A DNA stretch of 64,000 nucleotides from a candidate division WOR-3 bacterium (GTDB taxonomy: Bacteria; Hydrothermota; Tepidihabitantia; Tepidihabitantales; Tepidihabitantaceae). Both the position numbers and the translations under genes were made by a program. Below the pieces are notes generated by a model, which searched no databases, was not told where the DNA came from, and saw nothing but the letters and a program-made list of their open reading frames with translations. Location of the stretch: positions 18,989 to 82,988 of the forward strand of contig JBDRUH010000001.1 of the NCBI GenBank assembly GCA_039801225.1. The letters are read 5' to 3'. Below, piece after piece: positions 6,738 through 50,684 of the stretch (its first letter is position 1; each line of letters opens with the position of its first letter).

Positions 6738-6878
6738 TTAATGAACTTTGACTATTGACTGGATGCGGTTAGGGAAGGGAATTTGCAAAAAATAGACACC
6801 GGCAGGAGGGCGGTTGAATGTTTTAATGTCTATTCTTCTACCCGAGTTATCATAAATCTTGAAATCGCCTAAGGAAAC
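6738..6878 (-). pseudogene. Orphan T9SS-type C-terminal sorting domain remnant
   Basis: Translates VSLGDFKIYDNSGRRIDIKTFNRPPAGVYFLQIPFPNRIQSIVKVH*, similar to the C-terminus of 7966..9411; upstream frame runs into repeat DNA. Confidence 0.7.
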
Positions 6879-6925
6879 AAACCCCTGCCCCGAGCCCGAC
6901 TTTAGGAAAAGTCAAAAGGCAAATC

Positions 6926-7022
6926 TCAAAAGCCAAATCTCAAATCATTTTGACCCCTCGGCTCCGTCATTCCGACCGAACCAATGGCGAGTGGAGGAAT
7001 CCCTTCGCTCGGGGCAGGCTTT
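6926..7022 (+). repeat. Composite palindromic repeat, copy 1 (copy 2 at 61219..61314)
   Basis: TCAAAAGCCAAATCTCAAATC..TTTGACCCCTCGGCTC.GTCATTCCGACCGA....GAGTGGAGGAATCCCTTCGCTCGGGGCAGGCTTT present twice. Confidence 0.9.
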
Positions 7023-7098
7023 GGCAATTTGCATTTTGCCTTTTGAATTGATTATAAGGAATTCCTCCACTCGCGGAGCCTGCCCGAACCGAAGGAAG

Positions 7099-7130
7099 GA
7101 GATTGCTTCCCCGATTCGGGTCGCAATGAC
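7099..7130 (+). repeat. REP-like palindrome GAGATTGCTTC...TCGCAATGAC
   Basis: Related inverted copy at 53265..53298. Confidence 0.75.
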
Positions 7131-7163
7131 GGGGGTGAAAGGCGCGCAAGGGGGAGGAAGGTA

Positions 7164-7503
7164 AAGGCTAAGTGTATTTATATATACACAAAATTCTGAT
7201 GGTCAAAATTTAGTTAAGTATCGTAATTAAATAACTTAACTTGAAGACCGGTTTATATAGGGGGCTGTCCACTCCAGCACTAGGGTGGTAAAACCCTTTG
7301 TTGAAAAGGTTTTAGGCTTGTTGCTAAGTTTGATGTTAAAATCTTGTTTAAGTTCAAAGGGAAAATCAAATGGCGAGATGCTCGGAAGAAGGAGTCTAAA
7401 TAGGTTTTCAGGAATGCCTTTTGATTTGGTGCTAAGTTCAAGACCAAAAAGAAGGCTAAAAAACGCCTTGAAATCCTATTTAACAAGAAAAGGGAAAAGA
7501 TAA
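7164..7503 (+). repeat. Conserved non-coding element A (palindrome, 28-bp inverted repeat, G/C block, 12-bp phased array)
   Basis: Homologous inverted copy at 50205..50549, with identical blocks of 39, 29 and 37 bp. Confidence 0.9.
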
Positions 7504-7605
7504 GTCCTTGCCAATTTAAAAACCCTATGGAGTTTTAATGTTGGTAAATGATGCCTTAGTTAAAAATGCTTTCCAGACTTTTACCATATCTTGTGAGGGA
7601 CCAGG

Positions 7606-7641
7606 TGTCACATTCCAGAAAGTGTCAATATGACATTTTCC
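7606..7641. mobile_element. Short remnant of IS1202-type end sequences
   Basis: 7623..7641 TGTCAATATGACATTTTCC is the exact reverse complement of 43558..43576 in the IS left end. Confidence 0.6.
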
Positions 7642-7704
7642 TTGGGGAACCACCCCGCCCATTTTAACAGTTGACCGAACCTTTTTTTGGAGTATCATTA
7701 ATTG

Positions 7705-7947
7705 ATGAAGCAGAAACTATCCCCTTATCGTAATATCAATGCATTTATCCGCAAAGGGGAGAAGTATTATGTGGCAGAATGTGTTGAAATTGGTGTAGTT
7801 ACTCAGGGGAAAACGGTTGACGAGACCATCGCCAATCTCAGAGAGGCGGTGGCACTACACTTAGAAAACTTTGACTTTTGCAATTTGCATTTTGACTTCT
7901 CTGTGCGATCGCTTGGTCGCCAATCAAAATGGTGTAACCTGCTTTAA
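7705..7947 (+). CDS. HicB-family antitoxin, C-terminus replaced by repeat-derived sequence
   Basis: YYVAECVEIGVVTQGKTVDETIANLREAVALHLE HicB-like motif, followed by 7-mer DNA repeats; no hicA seen. Confidence 0.75.
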   Translation: MKQKLSPYRNINAFIRKGEKYYVAECVEIGVVTQGKTVDETIANLREAVALHLENFDFCNLHFDFSVRSLGRQSKWCNLL

Positions 7948-7965
7948 CTGTCTTTTCATCTATTT

Positions 7966-9411
7966 TTATTTTGGTTTTACAATCGGTTTGACTCTCTGAC
8001 CTGAGGTGGTTGGAATTTGCAAAAAATAAACACCGGCAGGCAGATGGGGGAAATTTTCCGGACTGACCATTCTGCCGGATTTGTCATATAGGGAAAAGTT
8101 GCCGGTCAATGAGTTAAGAAAGGAGCCAGTAAAAATTGTCGGTATCATCGGTTTAAGGCTTAAACCTTTTTCCTCAGGGCTTTTAATCCCCTGTCCGATA
8201 AATATGTCTTTGGGCACGCGCAGATAAATCACCGGATTTAATCTCCTTTCCCCCTCACCCAGCTCCCAGGAGCCCGCCTCCTGGTCGGCAAAGTAAAGGA
8301 TGTGCAGGGTGTCGTCAACAACCTCGGCAAGATAGGGAAACCGTTTGCTCGTCTCATCCGGCTGTGTGAGCCTTAAGGGCTCACTCCAGGTTCTGCCGTT
8401 ATCAAATGAAGCACTAGCCCAGATGTCAGCGCGGGCGATGCCGGTTTTGGGGTCAATATTTTGCGGGTCAAACTGCTCCCAGGCCACATAAAGGATATTT
8501 TCTGGGGAACGACATCTCCGGCGGTCAATCCCAATTGAGGGACGGTCAATCGCGGCGGTGTGCGCACCAAGGCGGTCTGTGTCCGGTAGTGAATATTCGC
8601 AAATAAAGTGAACCGGAGGCGTGTCATAGGGACAATAGTGCCAGAGTTGAACCCTGCCGCGGTTTTTGCCATCGTAGAGGTCAAGAACAATGTGAATCCG
8701 GTTTGAATCTAAAACAGCGCTGGCACCAAAGAGGCTGCGGTTAAAATTGCTGGGGACATTCTCTGAAAGGTTCTTAGTTTGATACCAACTGTTACCATTG
8801 TCCGGGCTCTCTCGGAAAAACAGTTCGCCAGTATTGCTGTTTGCCCAGATGTAACCCAGCCGGGTGGAGATTTTTGAGACAATAAGGTTGTGCCGAGGAA
8901 ATGGACCGCTTTCTCCTAACTTATACCAGGAAAAAGCGCTATAGTAGTAGAGGGTATCGTTCATTATCCCGGCAAACTTGGGGAGTCCGTAATAACCCGC
9001 ACCGATTAAATTGTATTGTGGACCATAAAGGAAGGTAACTTCTGAGAAACTCCCTTGACCCGGGACGGAGTCAATGAAGTAGGAAATAAGCCGTTGTCCC
9101 CGCTTCAGGTAGTCTGCCGAAATCATCGCCTTACCATTCCGAACATTATAATCTAAACAACCAAGATTACGGGGATAAAGGTTAATAATTATCCCCTCAT
9201 TCCAGCGCCAGTTTTCACCCTTAGGCTTGAAGTTATAGCGGATTTCACCGTAACCGTTTTTGTAGATAGCATGAATCCCGCGCAAGGTATCATAAGCAAG
9301 ATAGCGAACCGCCGGACCTAAAAACTGGCGGTCGCGGTCTGCCCAGCCAATTGTGTCAATATGCGATTCTTTAGTAGTGATAGCAAAAATTAGCAAGAAG
9401 CCAATCCCCAT
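7966..9411 (-). CDS. Secreted BNR/Asp-box (sialidase-like) protein with T9SS-type C-terminal domain
   Basis: Asp-boxes SPDNGNSW and SFDNGRTW; C-terminus YDKSGR...LPAGVYFLQI...KPIVKPK. Confidence 0.75.
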   Translation of the reverse strand: MGIGFLLIFAITTKESHIDTIGWADRDRQFLGPAVRYLAYDTLRGIHAIYKNGYGEIRYNFKPKGENWRWNEGIIINLYPRNLGCLDYNVRNGKAMISADYLKRGQRLISYFIDSVPGQGSFSEVTFLYGPQYNLIGAGYYGLPKFAGIMNDTLYYYSAFSWYKLGESGPFPRHNLIVSKISTRLGYIWANSNTGELFFRESPDNGNSWYQTKNLSENVPSNFNRSLFGASAVLDSNRIHIVLDLYDGKNRGRVQLWHYCPYDTPPVHFICEYSLPDTDRLGAHTAAIDRPSIGIDRRRCRSPENILYVAWEQFDPQNIDPKTGIARADIWASASFDNGRTWSEPLRLTQPDETSKRFPYLAEVVDDTLHILYFADQEAGSWELGEGERRLNPVIYLRVPKDIFIGQGIKSPEEKGLSLKPMIPTIFTGSFLNSLTGNFSLYDKSGRMVSPENFPHLPAGVYFLQIPTTSGQRVKPIVKPK

Positions 9412-13845: not shown

Positions 13846-14763
13846 TTATGCCCGGGGGTGAAAGGTTTTATAAACCTCGCGCAGATAACTGCGGTCAATA
13901 TGGGTGTATATTTGAGTTGTGGTAATACTTTGATGTCCGAGCATCTCCTGGACAGCGCGCAAATCAGCGCCACCTTCAAGGAGATGGGTAGCAAAGGAAT
14001 GACGGAGAGTGTGCGGTGTTACCCGGCGTTTGATTCCCGCAAGGTGCCAACATTTCTTTAATATTTTCCAGAACCCCATTCGGGTGAGACGAGCGCCACG
14101 GATGTTCAAAAAGAGGTAGGGATTACTTTTCCCGCGGCTGTAATAGGGTCGGGCGATGTTGAGATAATCCTTCACCGCCGAAATTGCCAGTTCCCCTAAT
14201 GGCACCATTCGTTCCTTGCCTCGTTTACCGATAACCCGGACAAACCTCTCACTTAAATCAATATCACCTGTCTTCAAATTAATGAGTTCTGAAACCCTCA
14301 AACCAGCCCCATAAGCCACCTCTAACATTGCCTTTGCCCGCAATACCCAGAACCGGTTAGCCACCTTCTCGGCACCCTCTATCAATTGGGCAACTTCTGA
14401 TTGACTGAGCGTATCTGGTAGGTGATGCGGTACCTTGGGCACTTTTAAATCAACCGTTGGGTTGCAGGGTAAATTATACTCGTTTACTAAAAAATCATAG
14501 AAGGAACGAATCGCTATTAACTTACGCGCTAAAGTAGAACTGGCTAACCCACAGTCGGCAAGGTGTCTAATATAATCTCTAATTGCCGCGGTCTGTGGGT
14601 GGTTCAGTCTTTCTTTAAAAGGACCGCTAAGAAATTGCTTCACATCGGTAAGATAGCAGTCTACGGAGGTTTTACTTATCCCTCTCTCTACTAAAAGGTA
14701 ATGGGCAAAACGCTCCAATATCTCGCTTTGTGGCTCTTGCCCGATTCGGGCATTATATTTCAA
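13846..14763 (-). CDS. xerD: Site-specific tyrosine recombinase XerD
   Basis: YGAGLRVSEL, GKRGKERMVP, TPHTLRHSFATHLLEGGADLRAVQEMLGH, TTQIYTH, FHPRA. Confidence 0.92.
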   Translation of the reverse strand: MKYNARIGQEPQSEILERFAHYLLVERGISKTSVDCYLTDVKQFLSGPFKERLNHPQTAAIRDYIRHLADCGLASSTLARKLIAIRSFYDFLVNEYNLPCNPTVDLKVPKVPHHLPDTLSQSEVAQLIEGAEKVANRFWVLRAKAMLEVAYGAGLRVSELINLKTGDIDLSERFVRVIGKRGKERMVPLGELAISAVKDYLNIARPYYSRGKSNPYLFLNIRGARLTRMGFWKILKKCWHLAGIKRRVTPHTLRHSFATHLLEGGADLRAVQEMLGHQSITTTQIYTHIDRSYLREVYKTFHPRA

Positions 14764-47953: not shown

Positions 47954-50029
47954 TTACTTTTTTGCGCCGAAGAGGGGATAGAGTTTGATGCGGGTTTCTT
48001 CGTCAACCGGACTGAACCGTTTGAACTGCATTGAGTGAGTCGCTCTTCCCTGGGTTAAGGAACGGAGGCTGGTGGCGTAGCCAAATGTCTTTACCAGCGG
48101 TAGTTCCGCGGTCACAATCTGATGTCCTTTGACCGGTTGCAGGTGCAGGATTCTACCACCGCGGGCGTTGATATCGGCAAGGACACTTCCCAGATACTGT
48201 TCTGGGGTAACCACCTCAAGTTCCATTATTGGCTCAAGGAATGTCGGCTGGGCGGAAAGGAACGCTTCCCGAAACGCCTGGGCGGCGGCGACTTTGAAAT
48301 CAACATCCGAGGAGTCAACCTGGTGATAGTTTCCTTCAATAATCCGCACCCGGGTGTTAATAATCGGATATCCCGCCAGGACGCCACCGTCAAAGCACTC
48401 ACCAATCGCCTCTTCAATCGGTGGTATGAACTCCTTAGGAATGAGGCCGGGCGGTATCTCGTTGACAACCCAGTTTCCCTCCCGGGAAGGTTCCAGGGCC
48501 AGTTTAACCACCGCATAGTGTCCCCGGCCACCGGTCTGGCGGATAAACCGACCTTCGGCACTGGCGCTACTGGTAACAGTCTCGCGATAAGAGACCTGTG
48601 GTTTACCGGAATGGACGCCAACCCGAAAGTCGCGCTCCAGCCGGTCAATGAGAATCTCTAAGTGGAGTTCGCCCATACCCGAGAGGATAAGTTGCCCGGT
48701 CTCCTCGTCGGTGCGCACTTTAAAGGTTGGGTCCTCAAGCGCCATAGTCTCAAGCGCATTGTGGAGTTTCTCGTCATCCGCCTTGCTCTTGGGTTCAATC
48801 GCCAGAAAGACCACCGGCTCAGGTGGCTTAATTGGTTCAAACGCAATTGGCTGGGCAAGGTCGGCAAGGGTATCGCCGGTCTGGATATCCTTCAGTCCAA
48901 TAACCACGCCGATTTCACCGGCAGTCAATTCCGCCACCTCCTGAACCCGGTTGGCATGCACTACCGCCAGTCTGGGTATCCGAACCCGTTTCATCTTCGG
49001 CACCGCCATTACCACATCACCCGATTTAACCTTTCCAGAATAAATCCGGATATATGAGAGCATCCCGCGATTGGGGTCAAAGGCAAGTTTGAATACCAGG
49101 GCGGCAAAGGGTGCCTGCGGGTCTACCGCTCTTATTTCCTCCTGGTTTGTTTTGGGGTTGAAGCCCTTAGCCGGTGGAATGTCCAAAGGTGATGGTAGAT
49201 AATCAACTATCCCGTCAAGGAGTTTTTGAATTCCTTTATTTTTGAGCGCGGTGCCGCAGAAAACCGGCACAATCCGTAACTCTAATGTCCCTTTACGAAT
49301 TGCCGATTTGATGTCCAGGGAAGTGATTTTATCCCCGGCAAGGTATTTTTCTAAAAGGGCTTCATCAAATGTTGTGAGGATATCCAAGAGTTTATGCCGT
49401 GCCGCCGCCACCTCCTTAAGCCGTTCCTCAGGAATGGGCTGAATCTCGTAGGTGGCGCCCAGGTCCTCGGTATGCCAGATGTATGCCTCTTCGGTGATTA
49501 GGTCAATTACGCCGGTGAAGTGGTCCTCAACCCCTATCGGCAGTTGCACCGGCACCGGAATCTCTTGAAACTTTTCCGCCATCATTTTAACCACCCGATA
49601 GAAGTCGGCACCGAGCCGGTCCAGTTTATTAACAAAGGCGATGCGGGGCACTTGATAGCGGTCCGCCTGACGCCAGACCGTCTCCGACTGCGGCTCAACA
49701 CCACCAACGCCACAGAAGACAATAACGGCACCATCCAACACCTTCAGCGAGCGTTCCACCTCAATGGTGAAATCCACATGACCCGGGGTGTCAATGATGT
49801 TAATCCGGTGGTTTAGCCAATAAACGGTAGTTGCCGCGGCGGTGATGGTGATGCCTCGCTCTCGTTCCTGGGTCATCCAGTCCATTTGGGTTGTGCCTTC
49901 ATCAATCTCGCCCATCCGGTGAATCCTGCCGGTATAATAGAGAATCCGCTCGGTGGTGGTGGTCTTACCGGCATCAATATGTGCCGCGATGCCGATGTTA
50001 CGAATAGATTTCAGGTCTTTTTCCAACAT
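47954..50029 (-). CDS. fusA: Elongation factor G
   Basis: [38 protein letters not shown]. Confidence 0.96.
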
Positions 50030-50204
50030 AGAAGGGATATGTTAGCACCTTAAGCGGAAGTGTCAAGCCAAGTTGAGTGTAGGGCAAACCTTCAGGTTTG
50101 CATTCCTTAGATGACCGTTAACCGTCATCCGTCCTCCGTTTTCCGGGGCACGGTCACGAACCACGGTTGTTTACCTTTTATCAAATTATTATTGTAAAAA
50201 TCGG

Positions 50205-50549
50205 TTAAAGTTCTCTCTTTACCTCTCTTGTTAAAAGAGATTTCCAGCCGCTTTTTAGACTTCTTTTTGGGTCTGAACTTAGGATTAAATGAAAAGCCAC
50301 TCCTATGAAACTATTTAGACTACCTTTTATAAACATTGCTCCATTTGATTTTCCCTTTGAATTTAAATCCGATTTTACCATAAAACTTAGAATCTAACCC
50401 AAAACCGAATTAGGAAGGGGTTTTACCACCCTAGTGCTGGAGTGGACAGCCCCCAAGCAAAACTGTGTTCAGGTTAAGTTATTTAATTACGATACTTAAC
50501 TCAATTTTAGCCATCAGAATTTTGTGTATATATAAATACACTTAGCCTT
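50205..50549 (-). repeat. Conserved non-coding element B (inverted homologue of 7164..7503)
   Basis: Palindrome 50524..50541, 28-bp inverted repeat 50473..50500 and 37-bp G/C block 50418..50454 are identical to element A. Confidence 0.9.
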
Positions 50550-50684
50550 AAACCCCTTCCTTTCTCTTACGCCCTTCATCATTACGAGACACAAAAGCGG
50601 CGAAAGACTCATATTGCCGGAGGTTCCTCGCCAGACTCTAAATGTAGGGCAAACCTTGAGGTTTGCAAGGCTCCAAACTATGAA

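Follow-up and report, generated by a model that had tools for sequence, protein, structure and literature searches.

A dispersed intergenic element with a conserved core and a tail phased every 12 nucleotides in a candidate division WOR-3 genome

We analysed a stretch of 64,000 nt from a candidate division WOR-3 bacterium (contig JBDRUH010000001.1, positions 18,989 to 82,988; hereafter the window), in which an earlier note had pointed out a duplicated, non-coding element of ~340 bp at 7164–7503 on the plus strand (copy A) and at 50205–50549 on the minus strand (copy B). We observed that the two copies belong to a family of about 28 members in this genome, each composed of a conserved core and a strand-asymmetric tail whose units keep a 12-nt register and whose length changes are exactly 12 bp, two 1-bp deletions apart. 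The element is non-coding, its core is old and constrained site by site, and its orientation relative to the downstream genes is biased. We favour the reading that it is an old module retained by the host and acting in cis on transcription, and give this a probability of about 0.35.

Copy number, anatomy and the 12-nt register

The window's own genome measures 1.50 Mb in 72 contigs and is 89% complete. A search for the element, which is ~420 bp long, gave 28 places at E ≤ 1.5e-10 among the 40 matches listed, with 77–86% identity. A sequence-only covariance model, R1, built from 20 aligned element heads, likewise gave 28 matches. The term 'duplicated' thus understated the copy number, and a repeated, mobile-type element is better supported than the earlier note could know. 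The family makes up ~0.7% of the genome. Five of the 28 copies are incomplete because they run into the end of a contig, as expected of repeats that break assemblies, and 5′-truncated as well as 3′-truncated copies are present. All the elements are intergenic and lie beside unrelated housekeeping genes in either orientation. In contigs from public hot-spring runs, the bins covering the element were 10–25 times deeper than its flanks.

Copies A and B are indeed homologous, with an alignment running from 7165/7166 to ~7503. The homology among the other copies extends to about +430 (window equivalent ~7570–7590), and the length of ~340 bp was therefore too short. The left boundary, GGCTAAG at 7166, is common to copies having unrelated upstream flanks; three copies have another repeat abutting there and different letters in place of their first 5 bases. 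Many copies end on the right in ...AAGATTAAAGGTAAC...GAAGGTGGAAAATTTTTT. In copy A, the last ~60 nt differ and are followed by a separate repeat at 7560–7653.

The element consists of two modules, a ~150-bp core and a C-poor, A-rich tail of 250–290 nt. The core of copy A spans 7166–7318 (plus strand); it is the conserved head, with a mean column identity of 90% over the 20 aligned heads, and is homologous to the 122-nt elements of a sister genus described below. The core of copy B was placed at 50398–50549 (minus strand) by projection from C1:69537 downward, with an approximate inner boundary, and its tail at 50176–50397 (minus strand), with an approximate 3′ limit. The first feature in the core is a palindrome, P1 (GTGTAT-N6-ATACAC), which in copy A was read directly from the sequence at 7172–7189 as the 18-bp near-palindrome GTGTATTTATATATACAC already described. 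It is followed by AAAATTCTGATGG, the inverted repeat AAATTGAGTTAAGTATCGTAATTAAATAACTTAA, TTTGAAGAC, a variable linker, the G/C block and GGTTTTGG.

Direct reading also confirmed the inverted repeat at 7213–7240. This ~28-bp repeat can be parsed as 11-6-11, which overstates its symmetry: complementarity is confined to the outermost 7 bp of the arms (GTTAAGT/ACTTAAC). Overlapping this repeat is a weak candidate sigma70-like pair at 7209–7237 (plus strand), recognised from the consensus as TTGAGT (TTTAGT in copy A), a 17-bp spacer and TAACTT. TTGAGT-17-TAACTT keeps its position among the copies and scores below the threshold of the promoter scan. The G/C block at 7260–7296 (plus strand; 37 bp, identical between copies A and B, as had been noted) exists in two forms. 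Form V1, the one in the window, contains a hairpin CCACTC/GGGTGG within GGGGG...CCC. Form V2, GGGGCTGTTCCCCCTACCGCTTAGGTGG, was found in five other copies, and the V2 copies carry GGGGCTGTTCCCC; the V2 hairpin GGGGCWGTYCCCC recurs 8–10 times in each of three genomes of the sister genus (G020, G045 and G048). The window's own genome also contains at least one short copy that lacks a tail (contig C42, 2889–2993); it is of the sister-genus type and carries the hairpin GGGGCAGTTCCCC.

The tail of copy A (7319–7560, plus strand) comprises ~20 degenerate 12-mers, with the register counted from 7324. The composition of the tails is 39% A, 29% T, 21% G and 12% C, with a GC skew of up to +0.35; the skew and the scarcity of C are on the same strand in all copies, and the element is AT-rich compared with the surroundings. 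The logo of the unit reads y-T-A-A-r-w-w-b-n-n-n-k, that is, a conserved core of 5–6 bp (TAArw) and a free spacer.

We measured the periodicity of the tails as autocorrelation at each lag against dinucleotide shuffles in 23 copies. At lag 12, the mean z was 3.68 and z exceeded 2 in all 23 copies, so that the 12-bp period of the earlier note is not due to chance; the mean z values at lags 24 and 36 were 2.47 and 2.15. Lags 3, 6 and 9 were at or below expectation (−1.04, 0.5 and −0.96). The conservation profile across the copies had a period-12 power of 0.9–1.1 versus a period-3 power of 0.14–0.23. The tail is accordingly a tandem repeat array of period 12 with its units in register. TRF reported no tandem repeat on the tail because of the strong degeneracy of the units. 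A sliding scan across the entire genome placed 10 of its 12 clusters above 4.5 SD in element tails, which indicates that the rhythm is specific to the element and not genome-wide; at 3.5 SD, the scan recovered 21 of the 28 copies. The strongest 12-bp-periodic region outside the family (contig C36, ~2449–2700; 5.1 SD) is G/T/A-rich, ends at a TTGAC...TAATAT promoter and resembles the tails of the sister genus.

The register is also visible in the length changes. Between copies A and B, the array is free of indels, as claimed earlier, and a single 1-bp gap, at 7259 in the linker of the head, is the sole one within the element. Over 25 aligned copies, the tails carry five deletions of exactly 12 bp (three at 7444 and one each at 7316 and 7334), and otherwise just two 1-bp deletions towards the 3′ end; the remaining 1-bp indels occur only in the linker (7251/7259), besides a compensating pair in one copy. 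The conserved phase of the 12-mers hence holds beyond the two copies from which it was proposed. Protein coding does not account for it: no period of 3 is seen, the frame that is most often open has a dN/dS of ~0.9, and each frame is interrupted by stops in several copies. Static curvature of the tail DNA was tried as a further property, and a wedge model showed neither curvature nor handedness beyond shuffles (mean z −0.02 and −0.22, n = 24), which is a weak test.

The mean pairwise identity of the copies is 0.86 in the head and declines along the element, reaching 0.61 where the tail ends. Three pairs of copies are mosaic, with an identity of 0.97 that changes to 0.56–0.71. The mosaic pairs together with the gradient point to exchange between copies.

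Relatives, orientation and neighbourhood

Searching 40 relatives with the whole element by blastn gave no match, and neither did blastn against phages and plasmids or exact head patterns in collections of genome, metagenome and viral contigs. The R1 model was scored on 43 other genomes of the family, seven of which belong to a sister genus, g12. R1 matched 37 times in G046 and 33 times in G047, which represent two g12 species, that is, in 2 of the 43 genomes, 2 of the 7 from g12 and no other genus. A second scan of metagenomes gave three loci, two of which correspond to locus L045, beside uvrC.

The g12 element is ~122 nt long, with flanks diverging beyond. It reads, in order, TAAGTnTATATAAAnATAnAC, AAAAyTC, GGTnAAATTGAGTTA, TCGCAnTTT, AACTTAGCC, CAnnTTTTG, a GGGG(4–6 nt)CCCC hairpin and GrTTTTGG. 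The GGGG/CCCC stem precedes TTTT, usually at 5–8 nt; where g12 has this T-run after the hairpin, the window's genome reads AAAACC, and no terminator was called on the plus strand inside the element in that genome. T-runs of g12 (GGTGATTTTGG, GATTTTG) correspond to A-runs (GGTGGTAAAACC, TTAAAAT) in the window's genome. Only a shifted 7-bp repeat, TTGAGTT/AACTTAG, is kept in g12, and so is the 17-nt spacing of the hexamers.

Several copies occupy the same loci in the two g12 species, where they precede gyrA, smpB, POR-gamma, a tRNA and a PLP enzyme, and these copies therefore predate the split of the two species. In all 45 aligned g12 copies, GT.TA...TA.AC is invariant and ACTTA nearly so, whereas adjacent columns are at ~50%. 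Dead copies that decay neutrally would not be expected to show invariant columns beside nearly free ones.

No match to the tail below E 0.1 was obtained in G046 or G047. A few g12 copies have a tail of ~170 nt, the end of which resembles that of the window's genome (..AAGATTAAA.., GAAGGTG..ATTTTTT). The exact V2-type hairpin GGGGCAGTTCCCC occurs 8–10 times in each of G020, G045 and G048 versus 0–2 times for the control, and is followed by stretches of skewed composition that run up to a TTGACA/TAnnnT promoter. In G011 and G044, the stretches preceding gyrA gave a lag-12 z of 3.5 and 3.7 in sequence that is G/T-rich and not A-rich; the lag-12 values from relatives are restricted to these two genomes, as the slices of G045 and G020 included coding DNA. 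We concluded that the core is old, that some kind of tail is also old, and that the A-rich array of 12-mers is the form amplified in the lineage of the window. The loci of GGGGCAGTTCCCC(CTACCGT) in G020, G045 and G048 (L098, L105, L106 and L115–L134) have several distinct, conserved upstream contexts of ~100 nt, and the tail at L106/L119, upstream of a tRNA, is pyrimidine-rich and conserved between two species.

The orientation of the elements was scored at 58 classifiable sites, in classes assigned by hand from lists of open reading frames (ORFs), which are crude, above all for short flanks. The element faces the downstream gene at 43 of the 58 sites (p = 0.0003), and within tandem gene pairs 26 elements are co-oriented versus 6 opposed (p = 0.0005). 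It follows an upstream gene at 35 of the 58 sites, which is not significant. The neighbours encode formate-THF ligase, DNA polymerase III delta′, AsnRS, EF-G, a release factor and trigger factor, and also EndoV, aminotransferases and TonB receptors. In the window, the EF-G gene (Pfam EF-G domains, L008:1-1314:-), which starts near 50020, is located downstream of the tail of copy B, and the tail points towards it.

Several other features adjoin the two copies and lie outside the element. The left flank of copy A (6860–7165) holds other short repeat families of the GGAATGACGG.. and GCAATTTGCATTTTGCC types; palindromic units of the GGAATGACGG/CCGTCATTCC type and GCAATTTGCATTTTGCC(TTTTGAATTG) form the clusters at 6860–7165 and 7868–7900. 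The 36 bases at 7100–7135 have at least six further copies in the genome, and most element copies carry such repeats on the left side only. Abutting copy A on the right is the ~90-nt repeat at 7560–7653 (plus strand), which contains the palindrome TGTCAATATGACA; blastn found it at seven places in the genome, at three of which it immediately follows an element copy. Just downstream of it in the window are a promoter-like site (7671–7698) and a small ORF (7702–7947, plus strand, 81 codons). The N-terminus of this ORF resembles HicB/UPF0150 (Pfam DUF7387 at E 8.4e-6, which does not reach the cut-off), a GCAATTTGCATTTTGAC repeat encodes its C-terminal part, and it is unique in the genome. Copy B is flanked on both sides (50650–50675 and 50075–50100, minus strand) by a hairpin-like GCAAACCT(C/G)AAGGTTTGCCCTACA, which resembles another short repeat.

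A possible role in transcription and the alternatives

In the reading that we favour, the ~150-bp core would be kept by selection at each site and would most likely act in cis on transcription, in the direction from head to tail. The 18-bp palindrome may be a protein site, centred ~63 bp upstream of a weak sigma70-type promoter, for which TTGAGT, 17 bp and TAACTT are the candidate elements, and a short G/C leader hairpin would follow. In the lineage of the window, transcription would read through past the hairpin into the purine-rich, C-poor tail, whose register would be held by selection, probably via a protein that binds once per 12 nt of transcript or DNA. The promoter, the transcript and the binding protein are what we infer here. 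The inference agrees with the promoters of these genomes, which are of the TTGACA/TAnnnT type, and with the hexamers and their 17-nt spacing, which are kept across genera.

Several points weigh against a transcriptional role. The consensus of the candidate promoter scores 7 of 12 and is not called by the scan tool, and only about half of the g12 copies have a −10-like hexamer that starts with T. Downstream genes usually have a promoter of their own between gene and element, so that a promoter role of the element is not needed. At 15 of the 58 sites, no downstream gene is faced, including the convergent 3′ ends of uvrB and uvrC; no functional theme was found among the neighbour genes, and no candidate binding protein was identified. 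The 12-bp indels could reflect a bias of slippage instead of selection, and the head-to-tail gradient with the three mosaic pairs could be the product of gene conversion. Finally, a related strain has no element at the locus of copy A, as expected for dispensable or mobile DNA.

The last point leads to the strongest alternative, in which the element is a selfish, non-autonomous repeat of the REP, ERIC, Correia or miniature inverted-repeat transposable element (MITE) type with no host function, its core being the recognition site of an enzyme acting in trans and its tail a passenger minisatellite that predates the spread. In a ~91%-identical strain, a contig of 17,397 nt from another study (X7) joins 6818 to 8283 with 245 other letters, which replace the repeats, the element and the small hicB-like ORF and do not form a precise empty site; the locus is thus polymorphic. 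The ~28 diverged intergenic copies in either orientation, the five at contig ends, the truncated copies, the clustering with other repeat families and the AT-richness relative to the surroundings all fit such a repeat, as does the patchy distribution, with the core type in two of seven g12 genomes and in no other genus of the 43 genomes. However, we found neither terminal inverted repeats, since GGCTAAGTG... at one end does not recur inverted at the other (...GAAGGTGGAAAATTTTTT, or ...TTTTGG in g12), nor a target-site duplication, as there is no direct repeat in the flanks. A Y1 transposase (PF01797) was not found in the window's genome (0/1) or in five g12 genomes (0/5), with a positive control in 6 of 14 genomes, and TnpB was not found in the window's genome; the genomes are 75–99% complete. 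Persistence at orthologous loci in two species, the strong differences in rate from column to column among fixed copies and the biased orientation also argue against a selfish repeat. An IS91-like rolling circle was considered for the head-to-tail gradient; its Y2 enzyme gave no match in a search whose control was silent too. One ORF with an rve_3 domain lies beside one copy, and the transposase searches covered the Y1, TnpB and Y2 families and tyrosine recombinases. Taking both sides together, a selfish repeat is a tentative explanation that we regard as somewhat unlikely, though still deserving serious weight.

A more far-reaching reading takes the tail for a register-locked landing strip on which a protein would oligomerise, each 12 nt taking up one protomer (~20 per element), with loading from the head on either RNA or DNA. 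This is a speculative picture, to which we assign a clearly minor share of belief. If it were true, the ~28 strips per 1.5-Mb chromosome would be previously undescribed, dispersed (ribo)nucleoprotein filament sites in a thermophile, and sister lineages would be keeping the rhythm and not the sequence.

The earlier note had suggested a phased protein-binding scaffold, and the tail may be one. As a reading of the whole element, it would have the palindromes nucleate a DNA-binding protein that spreads along the 12-bp units, in the manner of ParR–parC, TubR–tubC or a nucleoid-associated protein, and so organise or insulate the DNA. The conserved 12-bp register with indels of unit length and the TAArw core with its free spacer are consistent with this, and so is the lack of an RNA structure signal. 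The swap of T-runs and A-runs between g12 and the window's genome fits a reading at the level of the duplex, and the tails of another composition upstream of gyrA in G011 and G044, with their lag-12 z of 3.5–3.7, fit it as well. On the other hand, no partner gene is adjacent, 28 dispersed arrays are unlike a centromere, the strand asymmetry and the orientation bias are not needed for duplex binding, and neither curvature nor handedness exceeded the shuffles in the weak test described above. We consider a pure DNA scaffold improbable.

The earlier note had also proposed a structured RNA, and genes for small or long non-coding RNAs with a fold-dependent function would explain why both genera have kept the palindromes and the G/C hairpin. 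In Rfam 15, the element matches no family: the whole window gave only three tRNAs at the gathering threshold, the region 7100–7650 gave three chance-level matches of 15–18 bits at E ≤ 10, and 20 related loci gave only tRNAs and sub-threshold matches. RNAalifold on the 45 g12 copies returned P1 only, and no covarying helices were found beyond the two palindromes. For helices in the tail, the best score in the alignment from the window's genome was 2.53 versus up to 2.75 in column-shuffled controls. A long 3′ stem seen in single-sequence folds (CCAAAA..hairpin..TTTTGG) was rejected, with 63.1% paired versus 65.3% in shuffles, and a P2 helix, AATTCAG/TTGAGTT, was rejected at below 75% pairing.

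P1 and the 7-bp repeat are better paired than shuffles: the paired share is 86.5% versus 84.2%, and changes on both sides were counted in 17 cells versus 8.0, with none of 500 shuffles reaching either value. The palindromic symmetry itself therefore seems to be maintained. The third pair of P1 in the 45 g12 copies is GC in 18, AU in 7, UA in 5, GU in 2 and unpaired in 13. One-sided changes of the G-U type in the 7-bp repeat (UG 22/UA 12, AU 28/GU 15) speak for an RNA, and so do the slightly more stable folds of the plus strand (mean z −1.6 versus −1.1 for the minus strand, 12 sequences each); these z-scores are, however, far from those of typical structured RNAs. A fold-dependent RNA is accordingly a poor candidate, and we hold it to be quite improbable.

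A small protein gene of ~45–58 aa in the frame of ATG 7333, or its remains, encoding a tetrapeptide repeat (L/V)-(K/S/N)-x-x, is very unlikely. The most open frame, 7333–7456, is intact in 18 of the 25 copies, the indels of the tail are multiples of 3, and the ATG is kept in most copies. The stops are strongly uneven over the frames, a bias that arises because TAA is phased every 12 nt. The earlier statement that both of the frames open in copy A contain stops in copy B is correct for the minus frame, which has four stops in copy B, but the frame of ATG 7333 is open in both copies (56 and 58 codons), and the copy B stop that had been reported lies upstream of that ATG. Against a gene, the best frame has a dN/dS of 0.91, with no lag-3, lag-6 or lag-9 signal and no period 3 in the conservation; the frames with lower ratios (0.44 and 0.52) carry stops, the plus frame f0 having 1–8 per copy and the minus frame f2 being open in only 4 of 25; and the start is lost in several copies.

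We give almost no credence to a XerC/D-type tyrosine-recombinase core site with accessory arms, as the earlier note had envisaged, even though 7213–7240 parses as 11-6-11 and the genome encodes two tyrosine recombinases: only the outer 7 bp of the arms pair, separated by 14 bp, ~28 copies per chromosome would invite rearrangements, g12 has a different, shifted 7-bp pair, and neither recombinase gene lies beside a copy. One of them, at 13894–14409 (minus strand; Phage_integrase, 167 bits), is located 6.4 kb from copy A.

Relation to known systems

Dispersed intergenic repeats as such are common. REP/BIME, ERIC (IRU) and the Correia elements of Neisseria are short interspersed intergenic repeats of bacteria, which can carry promoter or terminator activity and are often transcribed with their neighbours. 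The present family resembles REP, ERIC and Correia sequences in having tens of copies of 100–400 bp that are intergenic, palindromic and restricted to a lineage. Unlike Correia elements and MITEs, it has no terminal inverted repeats or target duplication, and unlike REP it has no RAYT/Y1 transposase in the window's genome or in five g12 genomes. We know of no counterpart among the REP, ERIC and Correia families of a core joined to a 12-nt-periodic tail with register-preserving indels.

Short direct repeats in a fixed register beside a nucleating site also recall the ParR–parC and TubR–tubC systems. TubR centromeres consist of blocks of direct repeats upstream of tubR (PMC6009700). The present arrays differ from such centromeres in being dispersed ~28 times, without adjacent partition genes, strand-asymmetric and built from far more degenerate units. 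The unit of tubC in pBtoxis is 12 bp long.

The palindrome-associated transposable elements (PATEs) of IS200/IS605 similarly lack inverted terminal repeats and target duplications, and the 122-nt g12 form has hairpins near both ends. In contrast to PATEs and omega-RNA modules, the sequences of its two hairpins are not related, none of the genomes checked yielded a TnpA (Y1) or TnpB, and there is no Rfam omega-RNA match. With the dif site of XerC/D, the element shares an inverted repeat of ~28 bp. Sites of the dif type have two inverted arms of ~11 bp around a centre of 6–8 bp, occur once per replicon and are most symmetric at their inner ends; the symmetry here is outer and not inner, the copies are many and not single, and the register is not conserved in g12. 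The sequences TGTCCAC and CCTACC resemble DnaA boxes.

Repeated short motifs are also a property of protein-sponge RNAs of the CsrB/RsmZ type, with which the tail has in common a long non-coding stretch and a short motif occurring ~20 times. It differs from them in the even 12-nt spacing, in motifs that are not in hairpin loops, in being AU-rich and in its 28 loci versus one or two.

No prior description was found in Rfam, in phage, plasmid and viral collections or in a literature search with generic terms, which could miss a lineage-specific name. As far as these searches show, what is new is the combination of a cross-genus core, a ~250-nt tail that changes length in 12-nt units (two 1-bp deletions apart) and, in relatives, a rhythm free of the sequence. 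The element provides an example of selection acting on register outside coding sequence that is clean and can be tested. In addition, a single family accounts for ~0.7% of a streamlined genome, in a place that annotation would leave blank or fill with spurious ORFs of 60–70 aa.

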